Source: Cyanidioschyzon merolae (taxonomy: Eukaryota). Taken from it: a stretch of 64,000 bases of DNA. The notes under the pieces are model-generated. The model was not told the DNA's origin and did not search any database. It saw nothing but the letters and a program-made list of their open reading frames with translations. Made by a program: the position numbers and the translations under genes. Shown piece after piece: positions 22,486 through 63,440 of the stretch. Within the stretch, counting starts at the first letter, position 1. Each line of letters begins with the position of its first letter. The DNA lies in assembly GCA_000091205.1 (NCBI GenBank), contig AP006489.2; one strand, 5' to 3'.

Positions 22486-22524
<39 letters not shown>

Positions 22525-31083: not shown

Positions 31084-31120
31084 GCTCCAACCAACCAACC
31101 AACCAACCAATCAAACAAAC
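31084..31120. repeat. (CCAA)n microsatellite
   Basis: ccaaccaaccaaccaaccaatcaaacaaacaacc. Confidence 0.9.
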
Positions 31121-45600: not shown

Positions 45601-46362
45601 AGGGCCTCGACTTTGCCATGCGGTTTCATTGTAGGGCGCTTGCCAAGCATCATCCGGTGAGGCACGATGTGCTACCTGCCCAGCTACCACGGACGACTTC
45701 AATGCAGCTCGTGGGCTCACTTGCCGCTCACTCACAGGTGTACCTGATGCGCGCTTCGTGGCCTGCAAGTCACTGGGCGGTGCATCTGCCAGACTTGCTC
45801 CGGCTGTCGCAGCGTTCGGACTTGCGTGGTCGGCGACCAGCGGTGCCTCGTCAGCGCTGCTTTTCACTGCCGACGCGCCCAGAGGTCGAGCACCAAGGAC
45901 ACGACGTTTTGGTCGCCGCAACGTGGACCCTGCGCCTTCTGGTTCCGCACTTACGGCCTTTGGAAGCTGGACAAGAGCCGGTACGATCGAAGCAGCTTGA
46001 CTCGAACCGTTCTCGTCGTCCGTGGTCGTAGCTGGCGATCGGTGCTCCCGCGGATACGTCTCTGTTTGCAGTTCCACTGGCCTTATGGGGTTCTTCGCTG
46101 GCTTGTTGGATCGAGTGAGGGCGTCACCCGCTCGAAGCGGTAGTACTACGCTACTCTGCAGAGAAGTTGCTTGCTTCATTGCTTTCGACACGGAAGCTTC
46201 CTCCGGGCTTTCCGTGTCATCCTCGTCTGCGACCTCGAGAGCTGCACGCGCATCCTCTAGTAACTCGCGAGCGGCTTCTGCGACCTTCTCGGCTCGTTTA
46301 CGTGCCTCAATGGCTCTGTTAAAAGCTTCCTGGCGGAGCGCTTGCCACATGAACAAGTGCAA
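42622..46362 (-). CDS. golgin-like protein: long disordered Ser/Ala/Pro-rich region, ~250-aa coiled coil, C-terminal GRIP domain
   Basis: Its C-terminal PFLRQLLLVFLLSEKANQRREALDLLLRMLQCTEAERSQAL matches the GRIP consensus (eYLKNVLLqFL...). It is preceded by LEQ/LEE heptad repeats and a Q9 tract. Confidence 0.7.
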   Translation of the reverse strand: MHLFMWQALRQEAFNRAIEARKRAEKVAEAARELLEDARAALEVADEDDTESPEEASVSKAMKQATSLQSSVVLPLRAGDALTRSNKPAKNPIRPVELQTETYPREHRSPATTTDDENGSSQAASIVPALVQLPKAVSAEPEGAGSTLRRPKRRVLGARPLGASAVKSSADEAPLVADHASPNAATAGASLADAPPSDLQATKRASGTPVSERQVSPRAALKSSVVAGQVAHRASPDDAWQAPYNETAWQSRGPEGDAQAAIDHSSGYRTAPGKHPDVQLKLKPADEHAVSDMERFMPLECKEAAQRAQGSAAIHAHLSTVQGQAPGNVFYFDSKAPPVSSETTHTFEQGGSSVKSVSPQQTETNTIARRQAQLANRPISDATAKGDPDLARHDETLQASMPTTDSITMMDSEQVFHTGTHADPIRSAKSSRAHGGSDQHPPEPSAPETGEALAIKIAAAGAGTRKSATPPVSPGAVLDEPPLIHTPSPLAVHEAQAAVSKEPLLTPSTLPSTVPEAAAASEAQEAQLDTEGSRDITAAIGESASVMSTETAAGHSEGSTRVAGSSSPRDARMLSSASPSEPEALRAPETRSMTPPTAAAAALDPAIDRASAAVAAVRLPGIGSASVAVESPAAATSSNARTVDLQAGSLASADEELSYLLPESSIPVAGPFFGNDSGSDRLEDSTMTREQVPQSPGVSSPPGQGSTTPSARVQSPVSGVASIASGGSSCDRLAAAEDSTAWITERRRAADGTLHSVPGSSRLTFESEMAFRTAAYVAETSAEHLRSAPETQRPRLEAASTAAQSDDRAISPPAGASEQHLSREESVEAATHTSERVQGSDVGTSPSAGHESERVIGHQDEIASIAARYAAAQKEAEHWAVRYEALHAEYILLQTEVEKLREHCLEQESNTESLEEALEQALEQLRIAKEEQEASRRAETSASTKMVDLQRSMASLEKRLLEFEERERRLTTALTAMQQSHEAALARNQEQHRTQLSEIERRLLRSELALQEKDTELSALRARLEQTEAELVAARAENAQLTDTLAECRATLEEAQTRVARLSQERNWWKMLMLRQRYRPLIDPVLGDSSSEHPVYFNAESGKRLALGEQGDGSVDTQQQQQQQQEPLVPELLDVDQVIESTAADEPVDRPFLRQLLLVFLLSEKANQRREALDLLLRMLQCTEAERSQALGRVWPRSNAVSLGREFVRFLLRETEPDPQRDTDTGNLETVPSNRAVSDDGSTAQR

Positions 46363-46857
46363 GTCACTGATCCAAGCAAAGCCCGAATACGAAAACAGCG
46401 CTTGACAAGCAGCACAGCGTCAAGGACAAAAAATCGGGCGTTACTGGAATGGACGTCCCTCGAAAACGTCTGTGTGCTGGACTGCAGCAACGTTGACGTC
46501 GAGTCGCCGGACTGGGTATGCAACGTCCGTGAATGTTGACGAAGACTTCATCTGGTTGATCTTGATAGACGACGATCAGTAAAGGTCGCGCAATAACTAT
46601 TGGAAAGAAGCGCTCTGGAGTGACCACGAACCGAACCTCGCAGTACGAGTGACGGGTTTTACAGTTGCGCCAGACGCTATACTTTTGCTACTCGTTGAAG
46701 GCCTGCTAGCGGATGCGAAAGGCGTCAGACATCCACTGCTCCTGTCCAGTGTTCGAAGACGACCGTGAGACGCACTATTATGCCTCAGTGCGAGTTGCAT
46801 ACCGCCGCTGTAAGCGTTCTGCTGGCGAAAGCGTGCTCGTCGAAACCTGTTGATCGT

Positions 46858-46890
<33 letters not shown>
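46858..46890. repeat. (GAT)11 microsatellite
   Basis: gatgatgatgatgatgatgatgatgatgatgatgg. Confidence 0.9.
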
Positions 46891-46895
<5 letters not shown>

Positions 46896-47130
46896 GCTCC
46901 GTCGGGGTAGGCTCCACTCGTCGCACGACCAGCGACCCCTGGTGTGTGGAGCTGTTCCGTTGGACAAAAGCCCTGAGCGGAAAAAGAGGCAAGCGAGCAC
47001 AAGGCCTGGCAAAACTTCTTCGAACCTTGAGGTTGTACGCAGATATCAGATTAAAAAGGAGCAGTGAACTGCTCGCATTCGTTCTGCCCGTCAATATTTC
47101 AGCGAATTGTTCAAAAGCATAGCCTCGAAA

Positions 47131-48317
47131 CTCCCAATCCATCCATAAGCGCTTATGGATGCATACGTCGTTCGAGGACCCCTGGTCTTTTTTTCGGAGT
47201 GGTTCGCTCACCGCTTTGCTGCCGGCACTCGTTTCGATACAGGAATCGAGGTGGTTCACGACAACCTCGAATACATATTCGTGAATTGGCCTGTATCCTC
47301 ATCCAATGCGAACGTGCAAGCCGCTGCTCTTCTGCATTCCGGAGGTATCGCATGCCGGAATCACGCATTTTCATGCCCGGAATCTTTCTGTATCGAGGCA
47401 GCGAATAAGTGCAGAAAATTCCCACCTTTACATGGGCACGAAAAGCATTTCGTCTTCGCCTGCTAGCGAATTCTGCACTGGTTCATGGCGAGTCATCACT
47501 GAATGTGTCACGTCCAACAATCCGCTGCGTTCGAATGGCCAATGGCCCTCTCGTTGTGGTGAACGACGCACTGGCATTCGACAGCATCTTGATACGTCTC
47601 ACAGGATGTGCTCGCGGGGACTCGCGTCTTTTCCTTTTGCATTTCGAACGGTCTTCGACTTGGACGTTCTCTTCGCAGCAATCGCTTCTAGTGGAGCGTG
47701 CGTCATCGCGTCGCACGATACAAGCAATGGCCAGCTCGATAGATGTCGATCTGTTTTCTTTCCTGGATTTTCATCGCAGTATTTGTTCCATCACGAACAT
47801 TACCGAGTTCCACAAATACTTTATCGAATGGAACAGTGTGCACTTGCATTTGCAGCAGAGAGCGTACGTGCCGAGAGCATCATCTGCAAGTAGCCCGTGC
47901 GTATAGGGTACGGTATCGGGCACGCAAACCGAGACAGGTATAGACAATGCCCTTCTATACCCGTCAGTAACGTGTAACAATCGATGAAGCAAGCGCTCAC
48001 AATCGACAGCATGGCTCCCCGGAGTGGCAGCATGGTGTACGCGTGCGAACATTCGACCGCAGTCGGCTGGCACCGTCGCATACGGCAAACCTCTTTCGCA
48101 TACGCAGCAGATGAGCATACCAAGCGAAAAGTAGACCGCAACGCCGACCTACGCATCCAGTGCGTCCCCCGAAGCCGGAAGCAGCCAAATACTGACTCTA
48201 ATGTTGCCGGCAACATCCTTCACCAGCTGACAAAGAAGCCGGAAGGACCAGAGCGTCCAGCGTACTACACTCCAGAGGTAAAAGAGATGACTCTGAACCA
48301 GTCACAGAAAAAAAGCC
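47131..48317 (+). repeat. 1,187-bp dispersed repeat, copy 1 (direct repeat; left boundary of the nitrate-assimilation block). Family unknown; could be a solo LTR or a non-autonomous element.
   Basis: About 99% identical to 59673-60857 in the same orientation. Starts tcccaatccatccataagcgcttatgg (contains a 16-bp palindrome ccataagcgcttatgg) and ends ...cagtcacagaaaaaa(a)gcc. The internal ORFs are not protein-like. Confidence 0.9.
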
Positions 48318-49584
48318 CGCAGAGGCTGGTGTTATTGACAATAGCCAGAGATGCCTTCGTTAAGCTGTACGCGGATATTGGCAAGGCTTTTCTTTCTCGT
48401 CATGACATTGTCACGTGTATACCATAATGTATTCCTTGCTACAAGCTTTGCGCAGCGCATTCGCGGAAGGTGCGCTTCGTTCCAGCGAAGAACGCACGAA
48501 TCGCACGGGAGTCCCGCAGAATTCCGAAAGCCGTCCCTAACCTCAGCACAGACATTCAGGTGCTCTGACGGCGCTGCAATGCACCATGTATCCCATTGAT
48601 GCCACCCGGTTCGGACTGGGGCGTGATCCCTCCCACGATTCACCTGGTGTAGTGCTTACCCCAGACGCTTGCTCTGGCGACGTGCAAGTGTCCCATGGAG
48701 GCGTGAACGCTCGTCACGGCCTTTACTGACATCGGCTCGCTGTCACAAGGACTGATGCGCTCTGCTTGGTGCTGTCCGGATCCAACAAGCAGATCCACTT
48801 TCTTAAAGACGTACGAGAGATGAATGCAGCGGGGCATTCAGAGAGGCACCAATATCACCGCTTGACGAGGCATCAGTCTGGACGCTGCCCCAGGGGATGC
48901 TACGTGCTGCCACACAGATTGCAGCGTAGGCGTCCATAGGCAGCGTCGCTTGCGAAGCGATCGATGTCGGGCATACATAAACGCTCGAGAGAAAAAAACA
49001 AATCGGTTCCCGCCATCTTCGCATGGAGCGGCGAGATGTCGTCAAGCAAAGTTCATGGAACGATTTTCCAGCCAACGTAACATCGATTACCAGCTCACGA
49101 ACCGAAAAGCGATCCTTGATATGCGCAAAGTTTGCCAAGAAGGTCAGGATGTATCTTGGCACACATTTCGGTGTATGTTGTTATGAAAAGGAAAATGTAT
49201 TTTCCTGCGCTTTTTAGTTATTTCCTCGTCACTTCGGAACATGGATATGTCGATTACGAATGCGTATGCACCCATAACCAATGAATGGCAAGACGCGTTG
49301 CAGAGAGAATCACCCGAACCCTGGAGAACCCAGGTGCACATGCCTGCGTCCAATCATCGGTCGACCGGGCACGTGCTGGATGCATTGCCCTCTCGATCGC
49401 GCTTGTACCGTCAGTTGCCTGAAGTCTATCTGATGCATGCTCCGAGGTGGCGAACCACCATCTCTTGCAGTGCATGGTGCAGCATGACGACTGCCTTGCA
49501 AAGTTAGCCGTACCACCGCATGCATATATCCTGCACATCCACATGTGCCACGTAGACTCATTCACGAAGCTCTATCTCGGATGC

Positions 49585-51291
49585 CTACGGCTTCTGAGCT
49601 GGATGCACGTCCGAAACGTGTTCCGCCTCAGGGCGTGTGCCACGATCAAGAGCACTTGTCGTTTCCACCGGTTCAATCGAGTCGCGCATGACGCTCTGCA
49701 GTGCGCCAGTATTCATGGGTTCGCCTATCGCTACGATCGGCGACATAGCCTTGTCGTCTGGCGGCTGCTCCGAGACACCAAGATCGTCCTTTTGGAGACT
49801 CAAGCGATTCAGCGCACGCAATTCTGCATCAGATATTCCAATGGTCGTCACTTTCACGGGGAGTGGCCAAAGCAACAGAAACGACAAGACTGAGATACCC
49901 AGCACGACAAAGGAGATTAGGCGAACCGCATCCGGATCGCTCATGTGGCTAAACACAAGACTGAGGGTGACGCCGCCAGTATTCCCGCCCGCACCAACGA
50001 TACCACCCACGGACCCGGTCGCGATCGGATCCACGAAGGGGACGATCGCGAAAACTGCGCCGCATGACGCCTGCGTGAAAAGGGAAAAAAGAATCAAAGT
50101 GGGTATTGCTGCACCGATGGTCGTCATCCGGGAGAAAACCAAGCAGAATACACCCTCGAGAACCAGGTTCGCGAACAACCAGAGCACACGTCCGCGCATG
50201 CTGTAGCGACGCGCAATCAGATCCGAGCCAATACCGCCAACAGCCCGCGCAAACAGGTTCATTAGTCCAAAGAGACCTGCCGCAACACCGGCTATCGATT
50301 GATCAAGGTTGAAGACTTTGTTGAAGTAAGTAGCCAGCACGTTATCCATGGTCAGCTCAACACCGAAAGAAGACGCATACAGGCAGAACAGCACATACGT
50401 TCGCGGATTTCTTGCTGCTCGCGCAAAAGCCTCGAGTGCTGAAATCGGGCGCAAGTTCCCGATTCGATAGAGATTCTTGTAGTCACCGTCTGGGCAGTCG
50501 TCGGAGAAGAAGAACAAGACCACGGCCCAGATCAGGGCCATGGTACCAGGGATCACCATCACGACTCGCCAGGCTTTTTCCTCGTCCAAACCGAAGACCT
50601 TCATCAAGTTATAGAACTGCGGCATAAGCGCATTGGTGGCGCCACCGCCCGCATTGCCCCATCCCGCTGCAACCGCATTCGCTGTTCCAATGATATTCCT
50701 CGAGAACATCAGCGCACACCAGTACTCAGTTACAACGAAGGTTGCACCAAGACCGCCGATGAAAAAACGTGCTGTGGCGAATGATGCAAAATTATACACC
50801 GTTCCGAACAGATACACCGGGATTGAGAACACCGCCAGCAGGAGCGCCTGAACACGTCGTGGCCCGAAGCGGTCCACCAGGGCACCAGTCACCATGCGCA
50901 TGAACACTGTACCTGAAAGCGCAATCGCATTCGAGTGCGCTTTGTTCGCTTTGGTCAAGTCCAATGCTTTGTCCGAGGAAATACTCGGTAAAAGCGCTGG
51001 TACCGCAAACCAACCGAAAAACGCGATGAAAAAGGATGACCATGCAAAGAAAAAGGCCCGCATATGCGGACGGTCGAAGCGCCACGGCTCCAGGCGCCTT
51101 GCCCGGTGTAGGGCATCGACTGGCAAACGGTACGAATACAGCGGAGCCGCCACCGACTCCACTTCAAGGTCTTTCCATTCTTTACTGTTCGGACGCGAAG
51201 GCCCCAGAGATGAGTCGAGGGTGTCGTCTCGGAGGAGGATCTCTTTCTCGTCCAACGCTGTAGGGACAGGTTGGCCAGCTCCCTCCGCCAT
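49585..51291 (-). CDS. NRT2: high-affinity nitrate/nitrite transporter, NNP/NRT2 family (MFS)
   Basis: 568 aa with 12 predicted TM segments. NNP signature AGWGNAGGG and GGLGATFVVTEYW are present. The N- and C-terminal tails are hydrophilic. Confidence 0.9.
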   Translation of the reverse strand: MAEGAGQPVPTALDEKEILLRDDTLDSSLGPSRPNSKEWKDLEVESVAAPLYSYRLPVDALHRARRLEPWRFDRPHMRAFFFAWSSFFIAFFGWFAVPALLPSISSDKALDLTKANKAHSNAIALSGTVFMRMVTGALVDRFGPRRVQALLLAVFSIPVYLFGTVYNFASFATARFFIGGLGATFVVTEYWCALMFSRNIIGTANAVAAGWGNAGGGATNALMPQFYNLMKVFGLDEEKAWRVVMVIPGTMALIWAVVLFFFSDDCPDGDYKNLYRIGNLRPISALEAFARAARNPRTYVLFCLYASSFGVELTMDNVLATYFNKVFNLDQSIAGVAAGLFGLMNLFARAVGGIGSDLIARRYSMRGRVLWLFANLVLEGVFCLVFSRMTTIGAAIPTLILFSLFTQASCGAVFAIVPFVDPIATGSVGGIVGAGGNTGGVTLSLVFSHMSDPDAVRLISFVVLGISVLSFLLLWPLPVKVTTIGISDAELRALNRLSLQKDDLGVSEQPPDDKAMSPIVAIGEPMNTGALQSVMRDSIEPVETTSALDRGTRPEAEHVSDVHPAQKP

Positions 51292-51439
51292 GCCGGAGTG
51301 GTCAGGACAGCGGTTTTGTGCTCAACACTTAAGTACGTTATGTATGTCGGGGAAACGCACCAAGCGTCAACTCCCCTTCCGCTGACAAGTTGTGGCAGAC
51401 ACAAAGTGCCTCTCAACTGAATGCCAAACACGAATACAA

Positions 51440-51525
51440 CGTGTGGCGCACGCATGCACCATCATGCGTGCATCGCCGTGCGCACGCATGCGATAGGTCG
51501 ATGGCGCGCGCGCGCGCGCCGCTGC
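51440..51525. promoter_or_regulatory. candidate cis-element cluster in the divergent NRT2-NR promoter: three CACGCATG(C) cores (51449-51456 +, 51463-51470 inverted, 51483-51490 +) forming a 9-bp inverted repeat, followed by a (GC)9 tract (51503-51520)
   Basis: Read directly: gtggcgcacgcatgcaccatcatgcgtgcatcgccgtgcgcacgcatgcgataggtcgatggcgcgcgcgcgcgcgcc. It lies ~150 bp upstream of the NRT2 ATG (51291) and ~650-750 bp upstream of the NR ATG. Confidence 0.4.
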
Positions 51526-52163
51526 AACCGAATCGTTGACCGTTGAACGAATACGGAGGCGTACGCCAACGCCAACAACGCATCACGCCCACACGTGCTG
51601 GACACACGATGCCGATCCCGAAATACGACGCCGCTACGCTCCTGGACGTGGCGCCAACGAACGGCTCAACAGATTCGTGACAGGAGCAACAAGAACAACA
51701 ACAGTGACATCGCGAACGTGTTTCCTAGTTCGCGTAAAAGGCAAACGTGCAGCTGTACACCAGCGTTAGAAACTGGTTGGTGAGTTTTGAGGGGCACTTT
51801 TGAGTTGCAAGCGTTTGGAGGGTTTTTTAGAATTGTGGAGTTTGCTAGTTGTTGGTTGTAGTTGCCGTTCACGGAGCTAGGGTGCGAACACGACTTGAGG
51901 GCGTGGGGTGCTCGCCAGCACTCCGTTGTCACCGTGAAAATTCTGCAAGACTGCTCGGACGTGTTTTATTAGCTCTGAGTTCTATCGTCTGTGCAATTGT
52001 GATTTTTTTTGTTAGTGAACAACGAAGAAGAAGGTGGAAAACGAGTCGAGCAATCTAGCCGAAACGTGTGACCTCGCTCTGGGACGCGAATCTTGTTCGC
52101 TGAAACGCCCTATCGTCGAAAGACTGGAACCAAGAAGAATTCAAACGAAGCTGAAGGCCGCGA

Positions 52164-55109
52164 TTGTATGCTCGCTCGTGTCGACTCTTCAGTCAGTACC
52201 CCAATTGTGGATACCTTGCAAGGTCTCGGGACTGTCTATTCACGTACCACACGATGCACACTGTACCGGAGGGCTGCAGCTCCCCGCGTGCCGATGAGCA
52301 GACTAAGCTGATGCGCCAACAACCGCATGAGAACGGCACCAAACCGGCGATATTGTCGGAAGCGAGCGCGCTGCTCGCTGCAATGAGGCACTGGGAGGAG
52401 CAGCTCGCGCAGCGCCAGCTCCCCATCGACAAGCGAGATCAAAACACACCCGACGACTGGGTGCCTCGTCATCAGGCGATGGTGCGTCTCACGGGGAGGC
52501 ACCCGTTCAATGCCGAGCCGCCACTATGTTTGCTAGATCAGGATCTCACGAGCCAGGAACTTCACTATGTACGGAACCATGGAGCAGTCCCGCATCTGAC
52601 CCTGGGCACGCACCGCATTCATATCAGTGGCCTGGTAGAACGTCCGGGCGCGTTTTCTGTAGAGGAACTGCTCGCGCTGGGGGAGCTCGTCACGATCCCT
52701 GTGACCCTCGTGTGCGCTGGCAACCGGCGCAAGGAACTCAATCAAATACGCCAAAGCATTGGTTTCCACTGGGGTGCAGGCGGCGCCTCCACGTCCTTCT
52801 GGACAGGGGTACGTTTGGCGGACGTCCTCCGTCACTGCCAAGTCTGTGAATCTCCGAAAGCCCGTTATGTATGCTTCACTGGTGCTGATGAGCCAGCGAA
52901 AGGTCCGTACGGTACTAGTATACCGCTCGCGATGGCGCTGGATCCGCACGCTGACGTACTCCTAGCGGTTGCTCAGAATGGAGCGCCTCTACATCCGGAC
53001 CATGGGTATCCTGTTCGACTTTTGGTGCCAGGATGGATTGGCGGGCGCATGGTCAAGTGGCTGTCCCATGTTGAGGTTTCAGACCGCGAATCGCAGAACC
53101 ATTACCATTTTTTTGATAATCGCATCATGCCCCCACACGTGGATAAGGAGCGCGCCGACTCGGAGAAATGGTGGTATCGCCCCGAGTACCTTTTCAACGA
53201 GCTGAATATCAACTCGGCGGTAGTGCGCCCGCTGCACGATGAATTGCTTCCGCTGCACCATGCGAGCGAGCAGCATTCCTATCGTATCGAAGGCTACGCC
53301 TACAGCGGCGGTGGCAGACCCGTCACGCGTGTGGAGATCACTTTCGATGACGGTCAGCTTTGGAATCTGTGCGAGCTGCGGCATCCTTTTGAGCCGAACG
53401 CAGCCGGACGGCAATGGGCCTGGAGTCGCTTCAGCTTCAATGCATCACTCGTGCATTTGCTGTGTTGCACCGAGTTTGCAGTCAGGGCCTGGGATAGCAG
53501 CAACAATACACAGCCGCATCGCTGGACCTGGAACGTCATGGGTATGGGCAATAATGCGTGGTACCGCGTGCGCGTCTCACCGGTACCCGATCCCGGCACC
53601 GGACGTATTTCGCTGCGTTTCGAGCATCCTACAGTGCCGGGGCCGACGGCTGGCGGCTGGATGGGTTCCAGTACTGTCCCAGGAGCGTCGCACTCGGGGC
53701 AGCAACCAGCTGTGCCTGCACCAGCAACAGAACATGCACTGCGAGACGCCCCGGAGGCGAAGCGCGACATCGCCCAAATGGCTGAGCGGGTGCAGATGCC
53801 ACCTGTGCCGAACGCAGTTGGCAGCACGGTGCATGGCTCCAATGTGTACCAACAAATGATGCGCAAAAAGACCGCGGAAAAGCTCCAGCAGGCGCAACAA
53901 CGCCTCTATACAAGCGCCCAAGTTGAGCGGCACCAGAGTGAGACCGATCTTTGGATCGTAGTGCGCGGTCGTGTCTACGACGTGACGCGCTATCTGAACG
54001 AGCACCCCGGTGGCAAGGCGGCGATCATGATGAATGCCGGACAGGATTGTACCGAAGACTTTGAGGCCATTCACTCCGAGAAAGCCTGGAAGTTGCTGGA
54101 TGACTTTTACATCGGAGAATTGGCTCCTGCTGGGTCATCCGCAGATGCGTCGCTCTCGTCGTCGCCTCATCTGGCGTATACGGACTCGTCGACGGATCTG
54201 CTGCGGGAGCAGTTCTCCAGAGACGCAGTCATTCACGCCGATGCCGCTGACGGCGCCTGTACCGAGAGTATCGATGGATGCCGCCCGGCATTAGACCCAA
54301 AGAAATGGAAGGACTTTGTGCTCGCCAGCAAGTCGTATATCACGAAGAACACGGTGCGACTGCGCTTTGCTCTACCTGATGTCAACCAAGTGCTGGGTCT
54401 GCCTACAGGGAATCATTTGCTCATTCGGGCGCGAATTGAGAACAAGAATGTCGCACGGGCGTACACACCGACGAGTCTCGGCCACGAAGCCGGCTTCTTC
54501 GAGCTTGTGATCAAAGTGTACCGCGCGGGCGCGCATCCTTCATACCCGTCTGGCGGGAAAATGTCGCAGTATCTGGAACTGCTTCGTATTGGAGACACGG
54601 TGCAGGTCAAGGGCCCACTTGGGCACTTTAGCTACGTCGGACTTGGCGCGTACATGTTACATGGACGAGCTGGAAGGGCGCGGCGGTTCGCTTTTCTTTG
54701 TGCAGGCAGTGGCATCACGCCAGCGTTCCAGGTGATGAAAGCAATCCAGGTTGAGCTTCAAGAGCATGCGAAACAGTCATCTACACCGTTTCTGGATGCT
54801 ATATACCTGGTCTACGCGAATCGAAACGAGGACGAGATTCTGCTCTTCCAGGAACTCGAAGCATGGCGCCAGTGCGATGCGCGCTTTCAGTTCTGCTACG
54901 TACTGAGTCAACCGTCGGAAGCCATTTCCAAAACGTTTCCGGAGGCTGTCGTTGGCCACGTGAATCAGGAGCTGCTGGCAGCCCGTCTACCGGGGCCACG
55001 TAGTGATCTTATTATCGGCATTTGTGGTCCAGCGGGATTTCAGGATGATGCGTGCATTCCGGCACTGAAAGCTCTGGGATATACTTCGGAACAGTTTTTT
55101 ACGTTCTAA
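52164..55109 (+). CDS. NIA: assimilatory NAD(P)H nitrate reductase (Mo-cofactor/sulfite-oxidase fold, dimerisation, cytochrome b5, FAD/NAD(P)H reductase domains)
   Basis: Mo domain: WVPRHQAMVRLTGRHPFNAEPP ... HYVRNHGAVP ... CAGNRRKE. b5 domain: LWIVVRGRVYDVTRYLNEHPGG. Reductase domain: RAYTPTS ... GKMSQYLE ... GSGITP ... GPAGF. Intronless; the likely start is the Met at 52251. Confidence 0.92.
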   Translation: MYARSCRLFSQYPNCGYLARSRDCLFTYHTMHTVPEGCSSPRADEQTKLMRQQPHENGTKPAILSEASALLAAMRHWEEQLAQRQLPIDKRDQNTPDDWVPRHQAMVRLTGRHPFNAEPPLCLLDQDLTSQELHYVRNHGAVPHLTLGTHRIHISGLVERPGAFSVEELLALGELVTIPVTLVCAGNRRKELNQIRQSIGFHWGAGGASTSFWTGVRLADVLRHCQVCESPKARYVCFTGADEPAKGPYGTSIPLAMALDPHADVLLAVAQNGAPLHPDHGYPVRLLVPGWIGGRMVKWLSHVEVSDRESQNHYHFFDNRIMPPHVDKERADSEKWWYRPEYLFNELNINSAVVRPLHDELLPLHHASEQHSYRIEGYAYSGGGRPVTRVEITFDDGQLWNLCELRHPFEPNAAGRQWAWSRFSFNASLVHLLCCTEFAVRAWDSSNNTQPHRWTWNVMGMGNNAWYRVRVSPVPDPGTGRISLRFEHPTVPGPTAGGWMGSSTVPGASHSGQQPAVPAPATEHALRDAPEAKRDIAQMAERVQMPPVPNAVGSTVHGSNVYQQMMRKKTAEKLQQAQQRLYTSAQVERHQSETDLWIVVRGRVYDVTRYLNEHPGGKAAIMMNAGQDCTEDFEAIHSEKAWKLLDDFYIGELAPAGSSADASLSSSPHLAYTDSSTDLLREQFSRDAVIHADAADGACTESIDGCRPALDPKKWKDFVLASKSYITKNTVRLRFALPDVNQVLGLPTGNHLLIRARIENKNVARAYTPTSLGHEAGFFELVIKVYRAGAHPSYPSGGKMSQYLELLRIGDTVQVKGPLGHFSYVGLGAYMLHGRAGRARRFAFLCAGSGITPAFQVMKAIQVELQEHAKQSSTPFLDAIYLVYANRNEDEILLFQELEAWRQCDARFQFCYVLSQPSEAISKTFPEAVVGHVNQELLAARLPGPRSDLIIGICGPAGFQDDACIPALKALGYTSEQFFTF

Positions 55110-56342
55110 AGCCGTTTGTTTGCGATTTTTTTCTCCCAGTGATAAGCAGAAGACTTCGATGCAGTCTCGTCGCAGTGCTTGTCATACAAGCCAATACCGC
55201 GCTGCTCGCACCAGACGTGCACCCGCAACCTTCCTCTGAGTCTACGCAGTTCGCACGCTTTACCCCAAGGTGGAAAGCGCGTCAGCCAGCGCACCGGATT
55301 CGTGCATGCTGGCCATGCGATGCCATACGCAACGCGCCCGAGCCAATGAACAGCCGACGACCGCACTCGCTGCCCAGGCACGCGTTCCTCCGTGCCCCTG
55401 GACCGCTCAGCAGCACTGGCGCTCCAGGCGGGTCCCAGAGCTTCGAACGAGCACCTACGCCGCGACCGATGCCATACGAATTGTGCAAGAGGCGTGCACC
55501 TACCAAAGTGAATCTGTATTTCCTGGAAAGCGCACGACGGCCCCATGATGGGCCATACGCTTGAAGACCGCACAAAAAATTCGGAATCTCTGCGACGTCC
55601 TGATCTCTCTCTGACGCGAAGCGCCGGCATCGCACACCGCGGAACCCGGCAAATCGTGTGGCGGCGGTAGCGCCCGGCAGCGCATCGTCAAACCGGCGAT
55701 GATCAGCATATGGCATGCCAATCAGCGACAATAATGGATCATTTAGTTCCAAAAATTACAAACTTACCATCGCTCGGTAGATCGCCGAGTCGCATGTACA
55801 TTGCGGACGATGCGCAGCCGCCGTGCGTGCAGCGACCACCTGAACGGATGGCGCAGCTGATCGACTCGCGGTGACCCGCAGCGTTCGCCGTCTCAGATTC
55901 GGAACGGAAACGGATCGGATACCGATGGACTCGGGCGTCTCTATTGCCCAAAGCTTGCCTGCGCTGCGACCATATAGCGTCGCAGCAAGAAGCGAAAACT
56001 GAGCCTCATGGCACCGACCAAGTGCTGTGTCTTTCGCTGCTGCGCGCGAGCTGTGTTTGGGCGTAGCACTGCCTAGTGTCGGCGATTTGGCTATTCCCTG
56101 GTGCTAGCGCGCTGACACAAATGAGGTGCTCTGAATTTTTACGGTCACTGAAAAAGACGGCAGATAGCCCCTTGGTCGGCGCTTCGGTTTTAACAAGACT
56201 GCCAGGAGCCCGCGGCAACTCTGACATCAGCCTCTGCTATCGGTTCCCGCCTCATAGGCTGCACCCTTGAGGAATTCGTTCCAGCACGCACCCTGATCGC
56301 GTGCTTACCCGAGAATGCTGTTCATGGATTCGCCAGCAGCAG

Positions 56343-58403
56343 CTACGATACGGGCGCTGCCGGCACCCCATCCCAATAACGTTGCGCATACGCCTCGAGT
56401 TGCGCCTTCCCAACTCGATCGCAAAAGTCTCCAAAGGACTCGTCCGGCTCGCGTGCGCTTTTCCAGAATACAAACACCGGCTCCAGGACGCGCTCCACCT
56501 GATCGTCCGTCACCCGATCGATATACGGCCACGCGAGGCGCGTCTGCATCGGGCTCCCGCCCAGCCACACCTGATACGTACAATTCGGACCTGATCCGAC
56601 GAATCCCAACTCGGCCATGTACGGACGCGTGCACCCGTTCGGGCATCCAGTCATGCGCATCACGAACGATGCGTGCGGCGAGATGCCGACTTTGGACAGC
56701 AGCTCGCGCACGCGCTGCACGTAGCGCGGCATGACACGCTCCGCCTCCGTGATCGCCGGCGGACACAGCGGCAACGCTGGACACGCCATCGCGTCACGCA
56801 TCAGCGGATCCAGTGCGGATGCTGCCGTCTCGACGCCGAACGACGCCAGCAGCGTCTCGACGTCAGGGCGCGCTGTCGCTGGCACCTGCGTGATGAGAAG
56901 GTTCTGCTGCGGCGTACATACCAGGGGAAAGTTGAAGCGATCCGTTAGGGCACGGAGTGCTTTCTTCAGCTCGTCTTTGATCCGCCCGTTCTGTACGTAG
57001 AGGCCGAAAAACCAGCGTCCGTCTCCTTGCTCGCGCCAACCCAGATAATCCTGGAAAGTCCACGGCGGCATGGAGCGTATCGACTCTAGCGCACTGCCAC
57101 CACCCACCATATACGACTTGACGAGTTCGCGGAATCGATCGATGCCCAGCCGATGCACCAGGTACTTCATCCGGGCGTTCGTGCGAACTGCACGATTGCC
57201 GTGGTCCCGCTGGGCAGCCAAGATCGCTTTGAGTGTGTCGTACAGCGCCGCTGCCGGTACGTACCCCAGCGGATCGGCAGCACGCGCGAAGGTCTCCTCT
57301 TTGTTATGAGTGCGACCCATGCCGCCGCCGACGAGAATATTGGCACCTTCCAGTTGACCCTGCGCATCACAAAAAACGACGATTCCAATGTCGTGTGTGT
57401 AGATGTCGATAGAATTATCCCCGGGAACAGTGACACCAACTTTGAACTTGCGCGGAAGGTACAGCTTTCCGTAAAGCGGCTCGACGGAATCCTGCAGAAC
57501 CTGACCACGCCCGTTATCCTCCGTCATGAGTCGTCGAACTTCGTCCATGTCCAGCTCCTTCTTCCAGTACTCGATGCTGGCGGCAAGCTCCCCATCGAGC
57601 CACAGATCCGCAAACGCGTGCGACTGAATCGCGAACAGCTCTGCCACCATTCTGGCAACGTGTCGTGCCTGCGCATACGCGGCATCGACGAAGGGCGCCG
57701 GCGGCGCGATGACGTTGCGCGAGCAGTCGCCGCTCGCACCATACAGCCCGCCGCCCGCTCGCACGATGCTCTGGACGACGGTTTTCAGATTGGATTTATG
57801 GATGCCGTGGATTTGGAACGAAGAGCGCGTCGTGAGCCGCAGCGTCTTGTTCCCATAGGTTTCACTGATGTCGTCGAGTGTCGTATACAGCGAAGGCGGA
57901 CACTCGCCGGCGGGCATTTTCAGACGGAGCATGAACTGGTATTTCTTGAGCTCCCCGCGAACACGTTGATCTCGGTTATCTTGGAGATATCCGCCATGGA
58001 ACTTGATAAGTCCGATGCAGTCATCGGAGATGAAGATCTGGTCGTTGCCCAGTTCTTCCATTAATGGGTGACGAAGATAGTCCGAGTTCAGTTTCGGCAA
58101 CTCGTATGGATTTAGCTTGAGCTGGTCGAGTGTCCCGTCACGGATTGCTTCCTCGATATGCTTCCGCGTTGTGATCGGCACGACCGTATGCTTCTTCCGA
58201 GACTGTTCAGATGAGAGGTTTGCTATGATGTTCCGCCGGGCGGTTCGGCACTGCCGTTGGCGTCGTAGTCGGTCTCGCAACAGTACCTCGGTCAACGGAT
58301 AAACGCCCGGTGCTGCGGAACCGGTGGGTGCCAAACCTCTGCGAGCGCCGACTAGAGGTTTTGCGTACGTGACGAACATCATCAGAGTATACCGCACGCG
58401 CAA
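56343..58403 (-). CDS. ferredoxin-dependent siroheme/[4Fe-4S] nitrite/sulfite reductase family enzyme. The Cys-cluster motif is SiR-like; cluster context implies a nitrite reductase role.
   Basis: LKLNPYELPK ... YQFMLRLKMPAGECPPSLYTTLDDISETYG ... LRLTTRSSFQIHGIHKSNLKTVVQSIVRAGGGLYGASGDCSRNVIAPP is typical of plant/algal Fd-NiR/SiR. The metal-site block TGCPNGCTRPYMAELGFVGSGPNCTYQVWLGG resembles plant SiR (CPNGCARPYMAELGLVG...YQIWLGG) more than canonical NiR (CPNSCGQVQVADIGFMG). Confidence 0.85.
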   Translation of the reverse strand: MRVRYTLMMFVTYAKPLVGARRGLAPTGSAAPGVYPLTEVLLRDRLRRQRQCRTARRNIIANLSSEQSRKKHTVVPITTRKHIEEAIRDGTLDQLKLNPYELPKLNSDYLRHPLMEELGNDQIFISDDCIGLIKFHGGYLQDNRDQRVRGELKKYQFMLRLKMPAGECPPSLYTTLDDISETYGNKTLRLTTRSSFQIHGIHKSNLKTVVQSIVRAGGGLYGASGDCSRNVIAPPAPFVDAAYAQARHVARMVAELFAIQSHAFADLWLDGELAASIEYWKKELDMDEVRRLMTEDNGRGQVLQDSVEPLYGKLYLPRKFKVGVTVPGDNSIDIYTHDIGIVVFCDAQGQLEGANILVGGGMGRTHNKEETFARAADPLGYVPAAALYDTLKAILAAQRDHGNRAVRTNARMKYLVHRLGIDRFRELVKSYMVGGGSALESIRSMPPWTFQDYLGWREQGDGRWFFGLYVQNGRIKDELKKALRALTDRFNFPLVCTPQQNLLITQVPATARPDVETLLASFGVETAASALDPLMRDAMACPALPLCPPAITEAERVMPRYVQRVRELLSKVGISPHASFVMRMTGCPNGCTRPYMAELGFVGSGPNCTYQVWLGGSPMQTRLAWPYIDRVTDDQVERVLEPVFVFWKSAREPDESFGDFCDRVGKAQLEAYAQRYWDGVPAAPVS

Positions 58404-58619
58404 CTATGTTGAAGGCGCTGCTCTGGCACGAGCTCGAATGGCCAGCAGAGCTTAAACGAAGTAAGGCAAAAGCCATCCTGAATTCATGCGTTCCTATCGA
58501 TCCCACGGGTGCGTGTTATCCAACGGATCACGGATCCGTTGAGCATCGCAGACCTGTCCAGTTAAGTCTATAGTTGGCTCGTTTTGAATCTCTTCGCAAA
58601 GGCGCGCAGCGTGCCCCAC

Positions 58620-58680
58620 GCGCACACGTGCCGAAGATTCGTGCGATGCCGATCCGGCCTCATAGCGGACACGTGTCGCA
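58620..58680. promoter_or_regulatory. two G-box-like CACGTG palindromes (58625-58630 and 58670-58675) upstream of the reductase gene
   Basis: ccacgcgcacacgtgccgaag and ggacacgtgtcgcaagg, 220-270 bp upstream of the ATG at 58403. Confidence 0.3.
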
Positions 58681-59672
58681 AGGAAATGCCGTGCACGCAG
58701 CGTCCTTCCCATGGCCGTTATGTACAGTATGATTCATGTTAATTGTTTTAAGTGGACAAGTCTTGACACATGCCAGTGTTCTCCAACCGTGCGCTTCCTA
58801 TCAGCGCGCGGTGAAGCATCGCTCGATTCACCTACTTCCAAGTTCCATAACCCTTACCTCTTCTTGGATATACTAGCCGCTTCATACGTTCTATCGTTCG
58901 CCGCGTGCCTGCCCTGCTGCATCTGGAATAGCGATTATAGTGCCGGTGCGGTCGTAGCACGGTTACGGAACGGCGTTGCAGTTCCACAGAGGGCGTCGGC
59001 GCGAGAGTATACATGAATATCCACACACAGACGCCTCTCAGCTATTCTTGACCGGCCGACTTCTATCGGTTTCAGTTTCTGCTAGAACACTTCCAGCTTG
59101 AGAGGCTGCACCACAAAACTCGATCGCGACAGCTCCTCGGATGTCGTCTTCAACACTGCATATCGTCGGATATTGATAGCGGCGTCAAAGTCTCGGTTCA
59201 CGAATTCCGTCTGTTCATTGGCTCAGGTGGGACTCAACAAAGCAAGGATTCCTAGAACTCGCGCCTTCTGTGCAAGCAAGGCCTCGTCATCGCACCGTCG
59301 GGAAGCACCTGTTGACGCCAATCTCCCCTCTTGTTCTTCGTATTCTTTTTCACTTGCTCTTCTTCGCTCGATGGTATGCGAGAGGAGGATTGTTTTCGTT
59401 TTTCCTTTCGCGGCAGCCGGCGACAGCGGGCCCCCAGGATCCCTGCCGTCCACGCCCGTTCCTTTCCCTTGAATTTTATTTCTCCAAATGAAAGCACTTT
59501 GAGCACATCTGCTGTACGCTGCGAGAAAGTACTTGATGACATGCACCCGGGTCTGAAACACATTTGAGTTGAACGACGGTAAGATTCATATGCAACGCTA
59601 AATTTTTTGCACCGATCCCGCCTCAAGCTATTTCTTCCGAACGTTTCCTACGATGCACAGTATAATTATTAT

Positions 59673-60857
59673 TCCCAATCCATCCATAAGCGCTTACGGA
59701 TGCATACGTCGTTCGAGGACCCCTGGTCTTTTTTTCGGAGTGGTTCGCTCACCGCTTTGCTGCCGGCACTCGTTTCGATACAGGAATCGAGGTGGTTCAC
59801 GACAACCTCGAATACATATTCGTGAATTGGCCTGTATCCTCATCCAATGCGAACGTGCAAGCCGCTGCTCTTCTGCATTCCGGAGGTATCGCATGCCGGA
59901 ATCACGCATTTTCATGCCCGGAATCTTTCTGTATCGAGGCAGCGAATAAGTGCAGAAAATTCCCACCTTTACATGGGCACGAAAAGCATTTCGTCTTCGC
60001 CTGCTAGCGAATTCTGCACTGGTTCATGGCGAGTCATCACTGAATGTGTCACGTCCAACAATCCGCTGCGTTCGAATGGCCAATGGCCCTCTCGTTGTGG
60101 TGAACGACGCACTGGCATTCGCCAGCATCTTGATACGTCTCACAGGATGTGCTCGCGGGGACTCGCGACTTTTCCTTTTGCATTTCGAACGGTCTTGGAC
60201 TTGGACGTTCTCTTCGCAGCAATCGCTTCTAGTGGAGTGTGCGTCATCGCGTCGCACGATACAAGCAATGGCCAGCTCGATAGATGTCGATCTGTTTTCT
60301 TTCCTGGATTTTCATCGCAGTATTTGTTCCATCACGAACATTACCGAGTTCCACAAATACTTTATCGAATGGAACAGTGTGCACTTGCATTTGCAGCAGA
60401 GAGCGTACGTGCCGAGAGCATCATCTGCAAGTAGCCCGTGCGTATAGGGTACGGTATCGGGCACGCAAACCGAGACAGGTATAGACAATGCCCTTCTATA
60501 CCCGTCAGTAACGTGTAACAATCGATGAAGCAAGCGCTCACACTCGACAGCATGGCTCCCCGGAGTGGCAGCATGGTGTACGCGTGCGAACATTCGACCG
60601 CAGTCGGCTGGCACCGCCGCATACGGCAAACCTCTTTCGCATACGCAGCAGATGAGCATACCAAGCGAAAAGTAGACCGCAACGCCGACCTACGCATCCA
60701 GTGCGTCCCCCGAAGCCGGAAGCAGCCAAATACTGACTCTAATGTTGCCGGCAACATCCTTCACCAGCTGACAAAGAAGCCGGAAGGACCAGAGCGTCCA
60801 GCGTACTACACTCCAGAGGTAAAAGAGATGACTCTGAACCAGTCACAGAAAAAAGCC
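59673..60857 (+). repeat. 1,185-bp dispersed repeat, copy 2 (direct repeat; right boundary of the nitrate-assimilation block)
   Basis: Collinear with 47131-48317 with ~10 substitutions and one 1-bp indel. Example differences: cgcttaTggatg vs cgcttaCggatg, gaCagc vs gcCagc, ttCgac vs ttGgac. Confidence 0.9.
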
Positions 60858-61031
60858 TGAAAATCCTCATTATGAAAATAATGGGAAAAGATTCAAACTT
60901 TAGCGCGTATGCCCTTGTTCGCAAAATGAGCCCGCTCCATTTCGTACGAACACGGGTGTCCTAGCGTATCCGCGTCCCGATCGCCTCGATTCAAATCATA
61001 AATCCTACTTCATAAACCAGGTTACCTGCTT

Positions 61032-63440
61032 TCAAACAATAGGAGTCACTGTCGCGGCATTCGCCGTCTCTTTTGAAACAGCTGCCAAGTCGAGTGCCCG
61101 GTCTAGAGCCCGAACCAGGTCTGCTGCCCGATGGAGCGGCGTCTGCGCTGGAGCTACCAGCGCGTATACCGTGGTGCCCAGCGGTCGCAGGTAGATGCCA
61201 TGCTGCTGGCGAGCAATGCTCAGCACTCGCGTCTGACGGGCTGCAAGAAGCCGCTCGTCCGCCTGTTCAGCTGAGGTCAGCGGTGTGAGTTGCACAGCCA
61301 ACACGCTTCCAATCGCAGACACCGCACCAACACCAGGTTTGGTTGAGAGCGCTCTCACGGGTGCCAGCAACGCACCGTCGAACACGCGCGTCTCCGCGGA
61401 GGTTAGCCGCTCATAGATGGAGAGGGCTGCGTTCGCCGCTGCGCATCCCGCCGGATACGCAGAGTACGAGTGTCCGTGGAGGAGAGCGTCGGCTCGCTTT
61501 TCCCCCAAAAATGCAGTAAACACCTCCTCAGACGACAGGGTAACAGCCAACGGGAGCGCACCGCCGGTGAGCAACTTGCCATATGCGGCAATGTCGGGCT
61601 CACGATCGAGAATGCTGGCACCAGTGAGGGCGCCAAGCCGCCAGAAGGCCGTGAAAACCTCATCGAAAACGACCGGGATTGCCCGCTGCCGACAAGCATC
61701 GATCAGCGCTTGTTGATATACGACGTCGATGATACGCATGCCACCGGCGCCCTGTACCACTGGCTCGAGAACCAAAGCGCCCAGTGGCATCGATTCGTGT
61801 CGCGCTAGTTCCTCTGCAATGCTGCGGTGGTACTCGCGATATCGCTCGTGACGTCGTCGCTGGGCAGCAGCGTCCAAGCCTTGCGGTGCATCTGGCTGCC
61901 AGTCACCGTTCCAGATCGCACAGTATGGCGGTTTGAGGAAAAGGCCCCGGCCTCGATACCAGGGCGTTTGAAGCTGGTTAAAGGTGGACGACGGTGAGCA
62001 GTCCATGGCGCCCAGGGTGTCCCCGTGGTAGCTCCCCTCGAGGCCGACAATGCCGACATCCGAGGCGCGTGACAGGTCGAAGAGCCCTCGTTTCTGAGCG
62101 AGGCGAAATGCCATCTTCAGACCGATCTCCATCGCAGTACTCCCGTTATCCGAGAAGAAAACACGAGACGCCCAGCCATTCCCGACGCTGTTTAGGAGGC
62201 GCTTGCTGAGCAGCCAAGCTGGCTCGTGAACGCACTCGGGGAACATAACGTGGCCGTAGCGTCCCAGCGCATTCCCTATCGATCGGTTTAGCGTCGGGTG
62301 ACCGTGTCCGACTGACTGCGTCCACCAGGAGCCGCAGCCATCGAACCAACGCTCTTGAGTGAGCTCACTCGATGACGTTCTTTTCTGTGGACTCATTCCA
62401 GAGACGTCGCGCTTGACCGATTTGATAATCGTATAATCGTCGCCGTAAGCCGAGTCAATGAGCGTCGTCTGTGCTCGCTCCTCGGATGCAGACGGCATTC
62501 GCCGTGCCTGGTGTTGCGTGAAAGGCCACCACAGCACTTGGTCGCTCTCGCGAAGCATATCTTGCCAGCGTATCGCGCGACGACACCACCAGTGTCGGAG
62601 ATGCTCTATGAATCGTTGAGCAGTTTCGTCGACGGACACCAAGCCTTGTGCTGGCTGTGCTAGAGATGCCTGCGCATGCGCATCAAAGACTCGCAAATAA
62701 GGCTCCACAATGGGCGTCTCTTCTGGGTCCAGCTGAGCGCGGATAGCGGCAGCATTGCGATCAGCGCTCTCGAGTCCGGGGCCCATGCCGAATACAATGG
62801 CCGGGACATCATAACCACGGCTTCGCAAAGCTTCATATGCGGCGAGCGTCGTCGATATACCTCCTAGTCGTGCATCGCCAACAAGGACGCCAGGTAGCCG
62901 TACCGCGCGATAAAAGTCCGCCTGGAGCGTGCCGCTGGCGCTCACCGGAGACAACACACCACCCGCTGTTTCAACCATGAACAGCGAAAGCCCTGCGTTT
63001 TTTAGTGCATTCTCGATATGCTCCAACACCGTGGACGAGTCTAGTTCGGGAGATGCCAGACCTCCCGCGGGTCGCTGGAGCGACGCATGTGAGAACGGCT
63101 CCCCGGCAGTAGCAGCTGCTGCTGCCTCCTGTGGGGAACGCGCTAGCCTCCACGCGTACAGCGTCCGGCATGAAAAAGCGTGCTCTCTGGACACATATTC
63201 CAGAGCATTTTCTGGTTCGTTGATACGGGTATCCGTTCCCAGGGCTTGTCTGAATACGAATCGAGCGTCGTGATCGGAAGGAAACCCCGTCTGCAGCGGC
63301 TTGAGGTAAAGCAGTGCTCCCCTAGCTCGGTCGCTGTCTCGCAAGTGAGCTCGGGCGAGCGCTGCACAAACCAACGTCTTTCCAACGTTGGTATTCGCGC
63401 CCCATACCTGGAAAGCGAGCCCGTAAAAGTTTCGTTGCAT
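61032..63440 (-). CDS. BIO3-BIO1: bifunctional dethiobiotin synthetase / 7,8-diaminopelargonate (DAPA) aminotransferase (BioD-BioA fusion, biotin biosynthesis)
   Basis: N-terminal P-loop GANTNVGKT...LKPLQTG matches BioD. The C-terminal class-III aminotransferase region (WFDGCGSWWTQSVGHGHP ... FDEVFTAFWRLG ... PLKLLTGG) matches BioA. It is one 802-aa ORF. Confidence 0.88.
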   Translation of the reverse strand: MQRNFYGLAFQVWGANTNVGKTLVCAALARAHLRDSDRARGALLYLKPLQTGFPSDHDARFVFRQALGTDTRINEPENALEYVSREHAFSCRTLYAWRLARSPQEAAAAATAGEPFSHASLQRPAGGLASPELDSSTVLEHIENALKNAGLSLFMVETAGGVLSPVSASGTLQADFYRAVRLPGVLVGDARLGGISTTLAAYEALRSRGYDVPAIVFGMGPGLESADRNAAAIRAQLDPEETPIVEPYLRVFDAHAQASLAQPAQGLVSVDETAQRFIEHLRHWWCRRAIRWQDMLRESDQVLWWPFTQHQARRMPSASEERAQTTLIDSAYGDDYTIIKSVKRDVSGMSPQKRTSSSELTQERWFDGCGSWWTQSVGHGHPTLNRSIGNALGRYGHVMFPECVHEPAWLLSKRLLNSVGNGWASRVFFSDNGSTAMEIGLKMAFRLAQKRGLFDLSRASDVGIVGLEGSYHGDTLGAMDCSPSSTFNQLQTPWYRGRGLFLKPPYCAIWNGDWQPDAPQGLDAAAQRRRHERYREYHRSIAEELARHESMPLGALVLEPVVQGAGGMRIIDVVYQQALIDACRQRAIPVVFDEVFTAFWRLGALTGASILDREPDIAAYGKLLTGGALPLAVTLSSEEVFTAFLGEKRADALLHGHSYSAYPAGCAAANAALSIYERLTSAETRVFDGALLAPVRALSTKPGVGAVSAIGSVLAVQLTPLTSAEQADERLLAARQTRVLSIARQQHGIYLRPLGTTVYALVAPAQTPLHRAADLVRALDRALDLAAVSKETANAATVTPIV

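Follow-up and report, generated by a model that had tools for sequence, protein, structure and literature searches.

The window analysed here, a stretch of 64,000 nucleotides (64 kb) from contig AP006489.2 of Cyanidioschyzon merolae (assembly GCA_000091205.1), carries genes for the assimilation of nitrate, namely CmNRT, CmNR and CmNIR, whose published primers match it exactly. Our subject is a block of about 75 bp (51446-51519) located between the divergently transcribed CmNRT and CmNR, in which three copies of a 9-mer, GCACGCATG, placed in +/-/+ orientation, are accompanied by a (GC)8 tract. This block is real, non-random, and private to the NRT-proximal promoter of C. merolae. A first-pass annotation of the window had reported that the 8-mer CACGCATG occurs there three times in +/-/+ orientation, at 51449, 51463 and 51483, and that it forms a perfect inverted repeat of 9 bp; a sequence search and a repeat search bear out both statements, the arms being GCACGCATG and CATGCGTGC. 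The same annotation had proposed the triplet as a candidate cis-element for nitrogen status. This proposal was not supported, as the motif is missing from the promoters of CmNIR and CmAMT and from the orthologous promoters examined in related genera, and its constituent k-mers rank low in an unbiased screen. The evidence points instead to the (T)CAACGG(A) boxes, one of which adjoins the block.

The genes and the features discussed below are listed in Table 1. By homologue search, the nearest named homologues of CmNRT come from Cyanidiococcus yangmingshanensis, at 80% identity, and from Cyanidium caldarium, at 62%, and not from green algae. A prasinophyte (Ostreococcus-type) nitrate cluster was considered and rejected on the grounds of these homologues and of the exact primer matches; the organism belongs to the red algae. 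The start codons of CmNR and CmNIR are set at 52254 and 58382 by the promoter-cloning primers NR(9)Rgfp and NIR(9)Rgfp, respectively (Fujiwara 2015, PMC4549557). With the CmNR start fixed in this way, the intergenic region between CmNRT and CmNR extends from 51292 to 52253 (962 bp). The divergent NRT2/NR promoter described by the first-pass annotation is confirmed by the Pfam assignments, but its extent (870 bp, up to 52163) has to be corrected: position 52163 is the mere start of a TTG-extended open reading frame (ORF), and not the experimental start of CmNR.

The triplet and the alternating patch

Copies 1 and 2 of the 9-mer are separated by 6 bp and copies 2 and 3 by 10 bp, and a 12-mer, GCGCACGCATGC, forms a direct repeat common to copies 1 and 3. 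Over the 64 kb the 8-mer is not over-represented, with 4 occurrences observed compared to 4.78 expected; the fourth lies at 12782, upstream of a CCT chaperonin gene. The triplet, however, is the only non-tandem triple of an 8-mer (non-overlapping copies, within at most 45 bp) in the window, all other cases being tandem repeats, and first-order Markov random windows contain only 0.03 such triples per 64 kb. Having three perfect 9-mers within 43 bp, it is a candidate homotypic cluster of factor sites, for which at least three copies of one motif per approximately 100 bp, above chance, are expected.

The triplet and the GC tract are both held in a patch of perfectly alternating purine/pyrimidine runs, which includes the two longest runs of this kind in the 64 kb. 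This is also the densest 100-bp alternating window of the stretch: it has 57 bases covered, compared to a random maximum of 39.5 +/- 4.6, and none of 200 random windows matched it. The sequence criterion for Z-DNA is an uninterrupted CG-rich alternation of about 12 nt or more, and the runs of 14, 11, 16 and 16 nt allow the patch to be predicted as Z-DNA-prone. A (GC)9 tract had been annotated beside the triplet, at 51503-51520; the tract is indeed present, but the strict repeat is one unit shorter.

Given the run lengths and the composition, the probability of a triple 8-mer is 0.022 and that of a triple 9-mer 0.005, so alternation alone does not account for three identical copies. Neither do the copies result from one recent duplication, since their flanking similarity ends at 9 to 12 nt. 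The mixed orientation and the unequal spacers set the triplet apart from microsatellites and tandem repeats, a class to which only the GC tract, which is polymorphic in length, can be assigned. A role of the triplet as a cruciform or hairpin was considered and rejected: the single-strand DNA fold of 51440-51525 is no better than that of shuffles of the same composition (-28.3 kcal/mol compared to a mean of -30.6, z = +0.92).

An ORF of 166 codons runs on the minus strand from 51455 down to 50955, beginning at an ATG in copy 1 and overlapping the CmNRT start out of frame. It is probably spurious, and would matter if the NRT transcript began upstream of the triplet.

Table 1. Coordinates of the genes, repeats and promoter motifs discussed in the text (window positions, except where a contig is named)
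Feature	Position	Strand	Remarks
Copy 1 of 9-mer GCACGCATG	51448..51456	+	8-mer CACGCATG at 51449-51456; unchanged in all environmental contigs
Copy 2, inverted; reads CATGCGTGC on the + strand	51463..51471	-	CATGCGTG (reverse complement of CACGCATG) at 51463-51470
Copy 3 of GCACGCATG	51482..51490	+	8-mer CACGCATG at 51483-51490; polymorphic 2-bp GC indel 51480-51481 adjoins
Alternating patch, made up of four perfect purine/pyrimidine runs (14, 11, 16, 16 nt)	51446..51519		Holds triplet and GC tract
(GC)8 tract	51504..51519		With flanking bases, G(GC)8C at 51503-51520
Myb-core box CGTTGACCGTTGAACG, tandem TCAACGG/TCAACGA on the NRT strand	51534..51549		Inside ChIP primer R2 and amplicon #2; putative CmMYB1 site
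CmMYB1 ChIP-positive 'proximal' amplicon #2, CmNRT promoter	51534..51676		Primers CmNRT_ChIP_F2/R2, Zhou 2022 supplement (PMC8962646), exact match
G-box module CACGCCCACACGTGC...CGATGCCGATCC, CmNRT promoter	51584..51618		Common to CmNIR promoter
CAACGGA Myb core, NR-proximal side	51922..51928	-	-332 from NR ATG
Perfect inverted Myb-core pair CAACGGATC-acg-GATCCGTTG, CmNIR promoter	58521..58541		
CmNIR copy of G-box module	58617..58655		Contains CACGTG at 58625; second CACGTG at 58670-58675
(T)CAACGG(A) boxes on other contigs	L016 8236-8299; L011 ~9333; L012 9572-10000; L020 4775-4800; L021 4670-4790; L022 5903-5937, 10838-10855		
CmNRT (CMG018C), NNP/NRT2-type nitrate transporter, 568 aa	49585..51291	-	Pfam MFS_1; published primers; nearest named homologue is the Cyanidiococcus nitrate transporter
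CmNR (CMG019C), complete eukaryotic nitrate reductase, 951 aa	52254..55109	+	Pfam Oxidored_molyb, Mo-co_dimer, Cyt-b5, FAD_binding_6, NAD_binding_1
CmNIR (CMG021C), sulfite-reductase-like nitrite reductase	56343..58382	-	Pfam NIR_SIR, NIR_SIR_ferr

Motifs of the nitrogen assimilation promoters

According to Imamura (2009/2010), as cited in PMC4620153 and PMC8962646, the R2R3-MYB factor CmMYB1 controls NRT, NR, NIR, AMT and GS. When placed behind 800-bp upstream fragments of NR, NIR or NRT, sfGFP is not expressed in ammonium but is expressed in nitrate, the NIR fragment being the strongest and the NR fragment the weakest (PMC4549557). If the triplet were responsible for this response, one would expect to find it in other promoters of the set. 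Nine nitrogen assimilation promoters were compared, namely the NRT-NR intergenic region, the NIR upstream region and the AMT promoter of C. merolae, Cyanidiococcus and Cyanidium (for the NRT-NR and NIR regions of the last two, contigs L011 and L012). The CmAMT promoter was taken from a metagenome contig containing both published CmAMT quantitative PCR (qPCR) primers, and the AMT orthologues were obtained by homologue search. All 6-mers and 7-mers of the nine promoters were screened against a species-matched background, with a Bonferroni threshold of about 1e-5.

The exact 8-mer was present in one of the nine promoters only, the C. merolae NRT-NR region. It was not found in CmNIR or CmAMT, nor in the six orthologous promoters (NRT-NR, NIR and AMT) of Cyanidiococcus and Cyanidium, nor in the NRT and NIR promoters of Galdieria sulphuraria. 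Matches with one mismatch occur at approximately the background rate (0.9 per kb), and the k-mers contained in the 8-mer rank 67 to 129 in the screen (P = 0.008 to 0.13), none of them being significant. GCGTGCA/TGCACGC, tried as a conserved core of the motif, is present in five of nine promoters (rank 69, P = 0.009) and was set aside, as it is not significant after multiple testing. The search for enrichment in other nitrogen-responsive promoters, which the first-pass annotation had suggested as a check on its proposal, yielded, over these nine promoters, no significant enrichment of the 8-mer, and CAACGG came first. The annotation had also named two observations that would speak against the proposal. 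One of them, absence from other nitrogen-regulated promoters, was made; the other, an equal commonness of the motif in random intergenic DNA, was not borne out, as the motif is not common there.

We conclude that nitrogen status is most likely not read at the triplet and GC tract. It is very improbable, in particular, that CmMYB1 or another nitrogen-responsive factor binds CACGCATG and relays ammonium repression and nitrogen-depletion induction to NRT and NR. Such a role would agree with the presence of a statistically unusual homotypic cluster within a promoter known to be nitrogen-regulated, at 44 bp from a CmMYB1 chromatin immunoprecipitation (ChIP) amplicon and so inside the resolution of that method, and loose relatives of the motif can be pointed out in other promoters (AACGCATG at -110 in CmNIR, AATGCGTGC at -297 in Cyanidiococcus NRT, and CGCATGCGCATGCG at -113 in Cyanidium NRT). 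However, besides the results of the screen, CmNIR and CmAMT are CmMYB1 targets in which the motif is lacking (PMC4620153), and the NR(-800) reporter fragment, which begins at 51454 and thus cuts copy 1, is still nitrogen-regulated (Fujiwara 2015 primers). Furthermore, neither GCACGCATG nor the GC tract contains an AACNG/CNGTT core, which the adjoining box at 51534-51549 does, and the block is not of any R2R3-MYB site class (CNGTTR = YAACNG, AC elements).

CAACGG/CCGTTG took the first rank of the screen. It was found in all nine promoters, 24 times compared to 2.9 expected (P ~ 1e-14). Extended by one base, CAACGGA/TCCGTTG was the only 7-mer present in 6/6 NRT-NR and NIR promoters, where 0.01 such 7-mers are expected under the null. 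The three AMT promoters were added after the choice of the motif and constitute an independent check; each of them has three copies (9 in all compared to 0.72 expected, P = 8e-8). In Galdieria, the 163-bp NRT promoter contains CCGTTGG and TCAACGGA, and the NIR promoter contains TCAACGGAATCTCAACGGAA; 4 of the 10 CAACGG copies of that locus fall within 440 bp (P ~ 5e-5, by arithmetic from the counts). Overall, (T)CAACGG(A) boxes, typically two to three per promoter, are present in every NRT-NR, NIR and AMT promoter examined from Cyanidioschyzon, Cyanidiococcus and Cyanidium; Galdieria has them in its NRT and NIR promoters. The box next to the block shares a 10-mer, CCGTTGAACG, with the CmAMT and Cyanidiococcus NRT promoters.

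This box lies within amplicon #2, for which CmMYB1 ChIP is positive, and there is no CAACGG box in amplicon #4 (50805-50924), which is negative. Amplicon #2 is separated from the GC tract by 15 bp and from the triplet by 44 bp. CNGTTR/YAACNG is the established type-I MYB site, recognised by c-Myb and plant R2R3-MYB factors, and CAACGG fits it. The Myb boxes suit the role of nitrogen-status element: no other motif is common to all nitrogen assimilation promoters of the cyanidiophyte genera examined, the boxes conform to CNGTTR, and the ChIP amplicon contains one of them. No CmMYB1 binding motif was found in the accessible literature; we infer that CmMYB1 binds CAACGG.

Another motif is common to part of these promoters. 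The best local alignment of the CmNRT and CmNIR promoters, whose score is attained by 0.5% of shuffles, corresponds to a G-box module of 35 to 39 bp, CACGC(C/G)CACACGTGC...CGATGCCGATCC (CACGCsCACACGTGC...), which is collinear and in the same orientation relative to the two genes. The module is absent from the CmAMT promoter, and may relate to the nitrate-cluster-specific control seen in CmNDB1 mutants. Two CACGTG sites had been annotated at 58625 and 58670, upstream of the reductase gene (CmNIR); both were recovered by sequence search, and the former belongs to this module. CACGTG was rejected as a shared nitrogen element (three of nine promoters, P = 0.055). Control of the fungal GATA type was rejected as well, as HGATAR is found 13 times compared to 9.2 expected in the cyanidiophyte promoters, a count that includes the CGATAG located at 51492, in the interval from copy 3 to the GC tract. 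We also observed that CTGTACA/TGTACAG is enriched in the nitrogen promoters, with 7 occurrences compared to 0.48 expected, in five of nine promoters; it is found in the window at 51753 and 58721, and also in promoters on contigs L011, L012 and L020.

Variation, origin and possible role of the block

Environmental contigs encoding an identical NRT protein, whose intergenic regions are 98.1 to 99.4% identical to that of the window, were compared at the block. The three 9-mers are retained in all of them. Polymorphisms are found directly beside the 9-mers, at 51457 (C/T), at 51462 (T/C), and as a 2-bp GC indel at 51480-81, which in some haplotypes leaves 8 bp instead of 10 bp between copies 2 and 3. 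The three polymorphic events in 51446-51492 thus all fall within the 20 spacer bases, and none in the 27 motif bases; the probability of this, (20/47)^3, is 0.077, and the sparing of the 9-mers is suggestive only, a hint of constraint. As for the GC tract, only the window strain has (GC)8 without interruption; in each of the environmental contigs the tract is shorter and broken by a T (for example GCGCGCGTGCGCGC), but still alternating.

At the level of genera, the NRT-proximal alignment of C. merolae and Cyanidiococcus pairs the Myb box and the GC tract. The GC tract is at -228 from the NRT ATG in C. merolae and at -231 in Cyanidiococcus, and it adjoins a Myb core in both. In Cyanidiococcus, too, alternation per 100 bp reaches its maximum for the 21-kb locus in the NRT-proximal promoter (99.9th percentile), where two alternating sequences, ATGCGTGCACG and GCGCGCGCAT, flank the Myb box, and the alternating patch of the Cyanidium NRT promoter (CGCATGCGCATGCG) is at the 98.4th percentile. 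Alternation therefore recurs in orthologous NRT promoters as a sequence property, not as a sequence.

These comparisons bear on a neutral explanation, by which the block is repeat debris without a regulatory role, the mutational by-product of an unstable, GC-rich and microsatellite-prone stretch (dinucleotide slippage, and correction of quasi-palindromes by template switching). We consider this explanation to be a serious one, though on balance somewhat unlikely. The varying and interrupted GC tract and the GC indels at 51480-81 and 51504-05 argue for it, as do the lack of a counterpart of the block at the aligned Cyanidiococcus position and the fact that other co-regulated promoters work without it. 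The genome is, moreover, rich in alternating runs (102 with a length of 10 nt or more over the 64 kb), and repeats of the GCAC/GCGT type exist in non-promoter DNA of this organism: a (CACG)n microsatellite with approximately 14 units and, after it, ATGCGTGCAC lie between two convergent genes near CmAMT (L016 6710-6815). On the other hand, simple slippage cannot yield a mixed +/-/+ orientation, the copies have no similarity beyond 9 to 12 nt, the triple is unlikely even when alternation and composition are given (P = 0.005 to 0.02), the variants spare the 9-mers, and the orthologous NRT promoters also have alternating patches in the top percentiles.

Relative to the CmNRT start codon the block is 158 to 228 bp upstream, and it follows the Myb-core box immediately on the side of the gene. 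It might be taken for a core-promoter or 5'-leader element, placed at the CmNRT transcription start or just downstream of it, as either an initiator-region sequence or a structured leader rich in upstream AUGs and controlling translation. In the three C. merolae promoters, an alternating run or an ACGCAT-like sequence is found approximately 20 to 40 bp after the last Myb box and 110 to 200 bp from the ATG, as would be expected for the distance from an activator site to a start site; 'proximal promoter' is also the name given to the amplicon that lies just upstream of the block (PMC8962646). However, the block contains six ATGs in the NRT orientation, one of which opens the 166-codon out-of-frame ORF, and if transcribed these would strongly inhibit the translation of NRT, whose mRNA is well expressed (the 127th most abundant). 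The shuffle-level stability of the fold is a further objection, and we regard this explanation as improbable. A search for short contigs of transcript type, by which the NRT start might have been placed, gave genomic contigs only.

The reading that we prefer, to which we assign a probability of roughly 0.55 for its two parts taken jointly, is that the block has an auxiliary, promoter-specific function, as a cluster of sites for a putative factor and/or as a Z-DNA-prone spacer, and that the nitrogen signal is read at CAACGG. Nitrogen status would then be sensed at the (T)CAACGG(A) Myb-core boxes and not at the triplet, and the block would be a species-specific auxiliary element proximal to NRT. 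It may act as a homotypic site cluster for a dimeric factor. Equally, it may be an alternating purine/pyrimidine spacer that helps to keep the region between activator sites and start site open, or one that takes up the negative supercoiling to which divergent transcription gives rise. In each case the auxiliary function is one that we infer.

Several points weigh against this preferred reading. The block lacks conservation, of sequence as well as of position, in the sister genus, where the alignment pairs the Myb box and the GC tract and leaves the triplet without a counterpart. The GC tract is polymorphic in length, with a 2-bp GC indel also at 51504-05. With this lack of conservation, this polymorphism and a fold at the level of shuffles, a neutral origin stays plausible; the argument from polymorphism in favour of constraint is a weak one (P = 0.077). 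The binding of CAACGG by CmMYB1 is proposed on the basis of motif enrichment and general MYB biochemistry. Finally, ChIP-qPCR on sonicated chromatin cannot separate the triplet from a Myb box at 44 bp, so the triplet, too, could be contacted by CmMYB1 or a partner.

A more elaborate scheme can be put forward tentatively, and we hold it to be unlikely. The Z-DNA-prone patch might be a conserved architectural partner of the Myb boxes in cyanidiophyte NRT promoters, conserved in property and position rather than in sequence, and the three palindromic GCACGCATG sites might have evolved in C. merolae for a red-algal factor giving NRT/NR-specific control. One example would be a nitrate-cluster-specific repression, setting NRT, NR and NIR apart from AMT and GS in CmNDB1 mutants.

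As a feature, the triplet is probably minor and species-specific. C. merolae genetics uses the CmNRT, CmNR and CmNIR promoters as its standard switches, both inducible and repressible. According to a 2025 paper (PMC12770821), neither structural nor functional information exists, and no functional element has been mapped, for any endogenous promoter of this alga. Two testable products come out of the present analysis, the candidate CmMYB1 site (T)CAACGG(A) and the 35-39-bp G-box module common to the NRT and NIR promoters. If confirmed, they would allow a rational trimming and tuning of promoter tools, and would define an ancient red-algal nitrogen cis-code.

Surroundings of the cluster and comparison with known systems

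The whole NRT-NR-NIR cluster is flanked by a direct repeat of 1186 bp with 99.3% identity, at 47132-48317 and 59673-60857, the two copies being 12.5 kb apart. No Pfam or Rfam match was found within it. The counterpart intergenic regions of Cyanidiococcus are too short to contain this repeat, so both copies appear to be C. merolae-specific insertions. A search for structured RNA gave no Rfam match in 46000-61500. Further away, an ORF of 1316 aa (1347-5297, minus strand) carries a Hint (hedgehog/intein-like) module at its C-terminus. In front of this module there is an extended stretch of tandem repeats (GGTGTCGGTGTC-type units, + strand), which causes the strong GC skew at 2-6 kb. Other short tandem repeats of the window are (GTGCTC)n at 22486-22525, (CCAA)n at 31087-31112, and (TGA)n at 46858-46892, the last within a 220-aa ORF (46597-47259).

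The niiA-niaD bidirectional promoter of Aspergillus nidulans contains multiple NirA and AreA/GATA sites. The C. merolae region resembles it in that divergent nitrate genes share one control region of about 1 kb with several short, partly palindromic sites. It differs in the gene pair, which is NRT/NR here, in the factor families, and in the motifs, GATA not being enriched here.

The triplet also has a CATGC/GCGCA-type palindromic core, by which it resembles the RY/Sph element CATGCATG of plant B3 factors and the NRF-1/EWG palindrome YGCGCAYGCGCR of animals. The repeated unit of the triplet, however, is CATGCG and not CATGCA. CATGCA is found at 51453-51458, in copy 1 of the window strain, and is lost in haplotypes L001/L002 by the change of 51457 from C to T. 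To our knowledge, neither the B3 nor the NRF-1/EWG factor family is known in red algae.

With Z-DNA-prone promoter tracts, (CG)n or (CA/TG)n, the patch shares a perfect CG-rich alternation, placed here between divergent genes, where negative supercoiling is expected. In contrast to such tracts, it includes three identical 9-mers that go beyond what alternation alone would give, its longest GC repeat is private to one strain, and its Z-DNA propensity is read from the sequence.

A further comparison is with the CmMYB1 regulon itself. The block is in a promoter of this regulon, near a ChIP-positive amplicon, and fragments containing it are off in ammonium and on in nitrate or under nitrogen depletion. 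Unlike the elements expected of the regulon, however, it matches none of the MYB site classes, the other regulon promoters examined lack it, and the motif that these promoters have in common is CAACGG.

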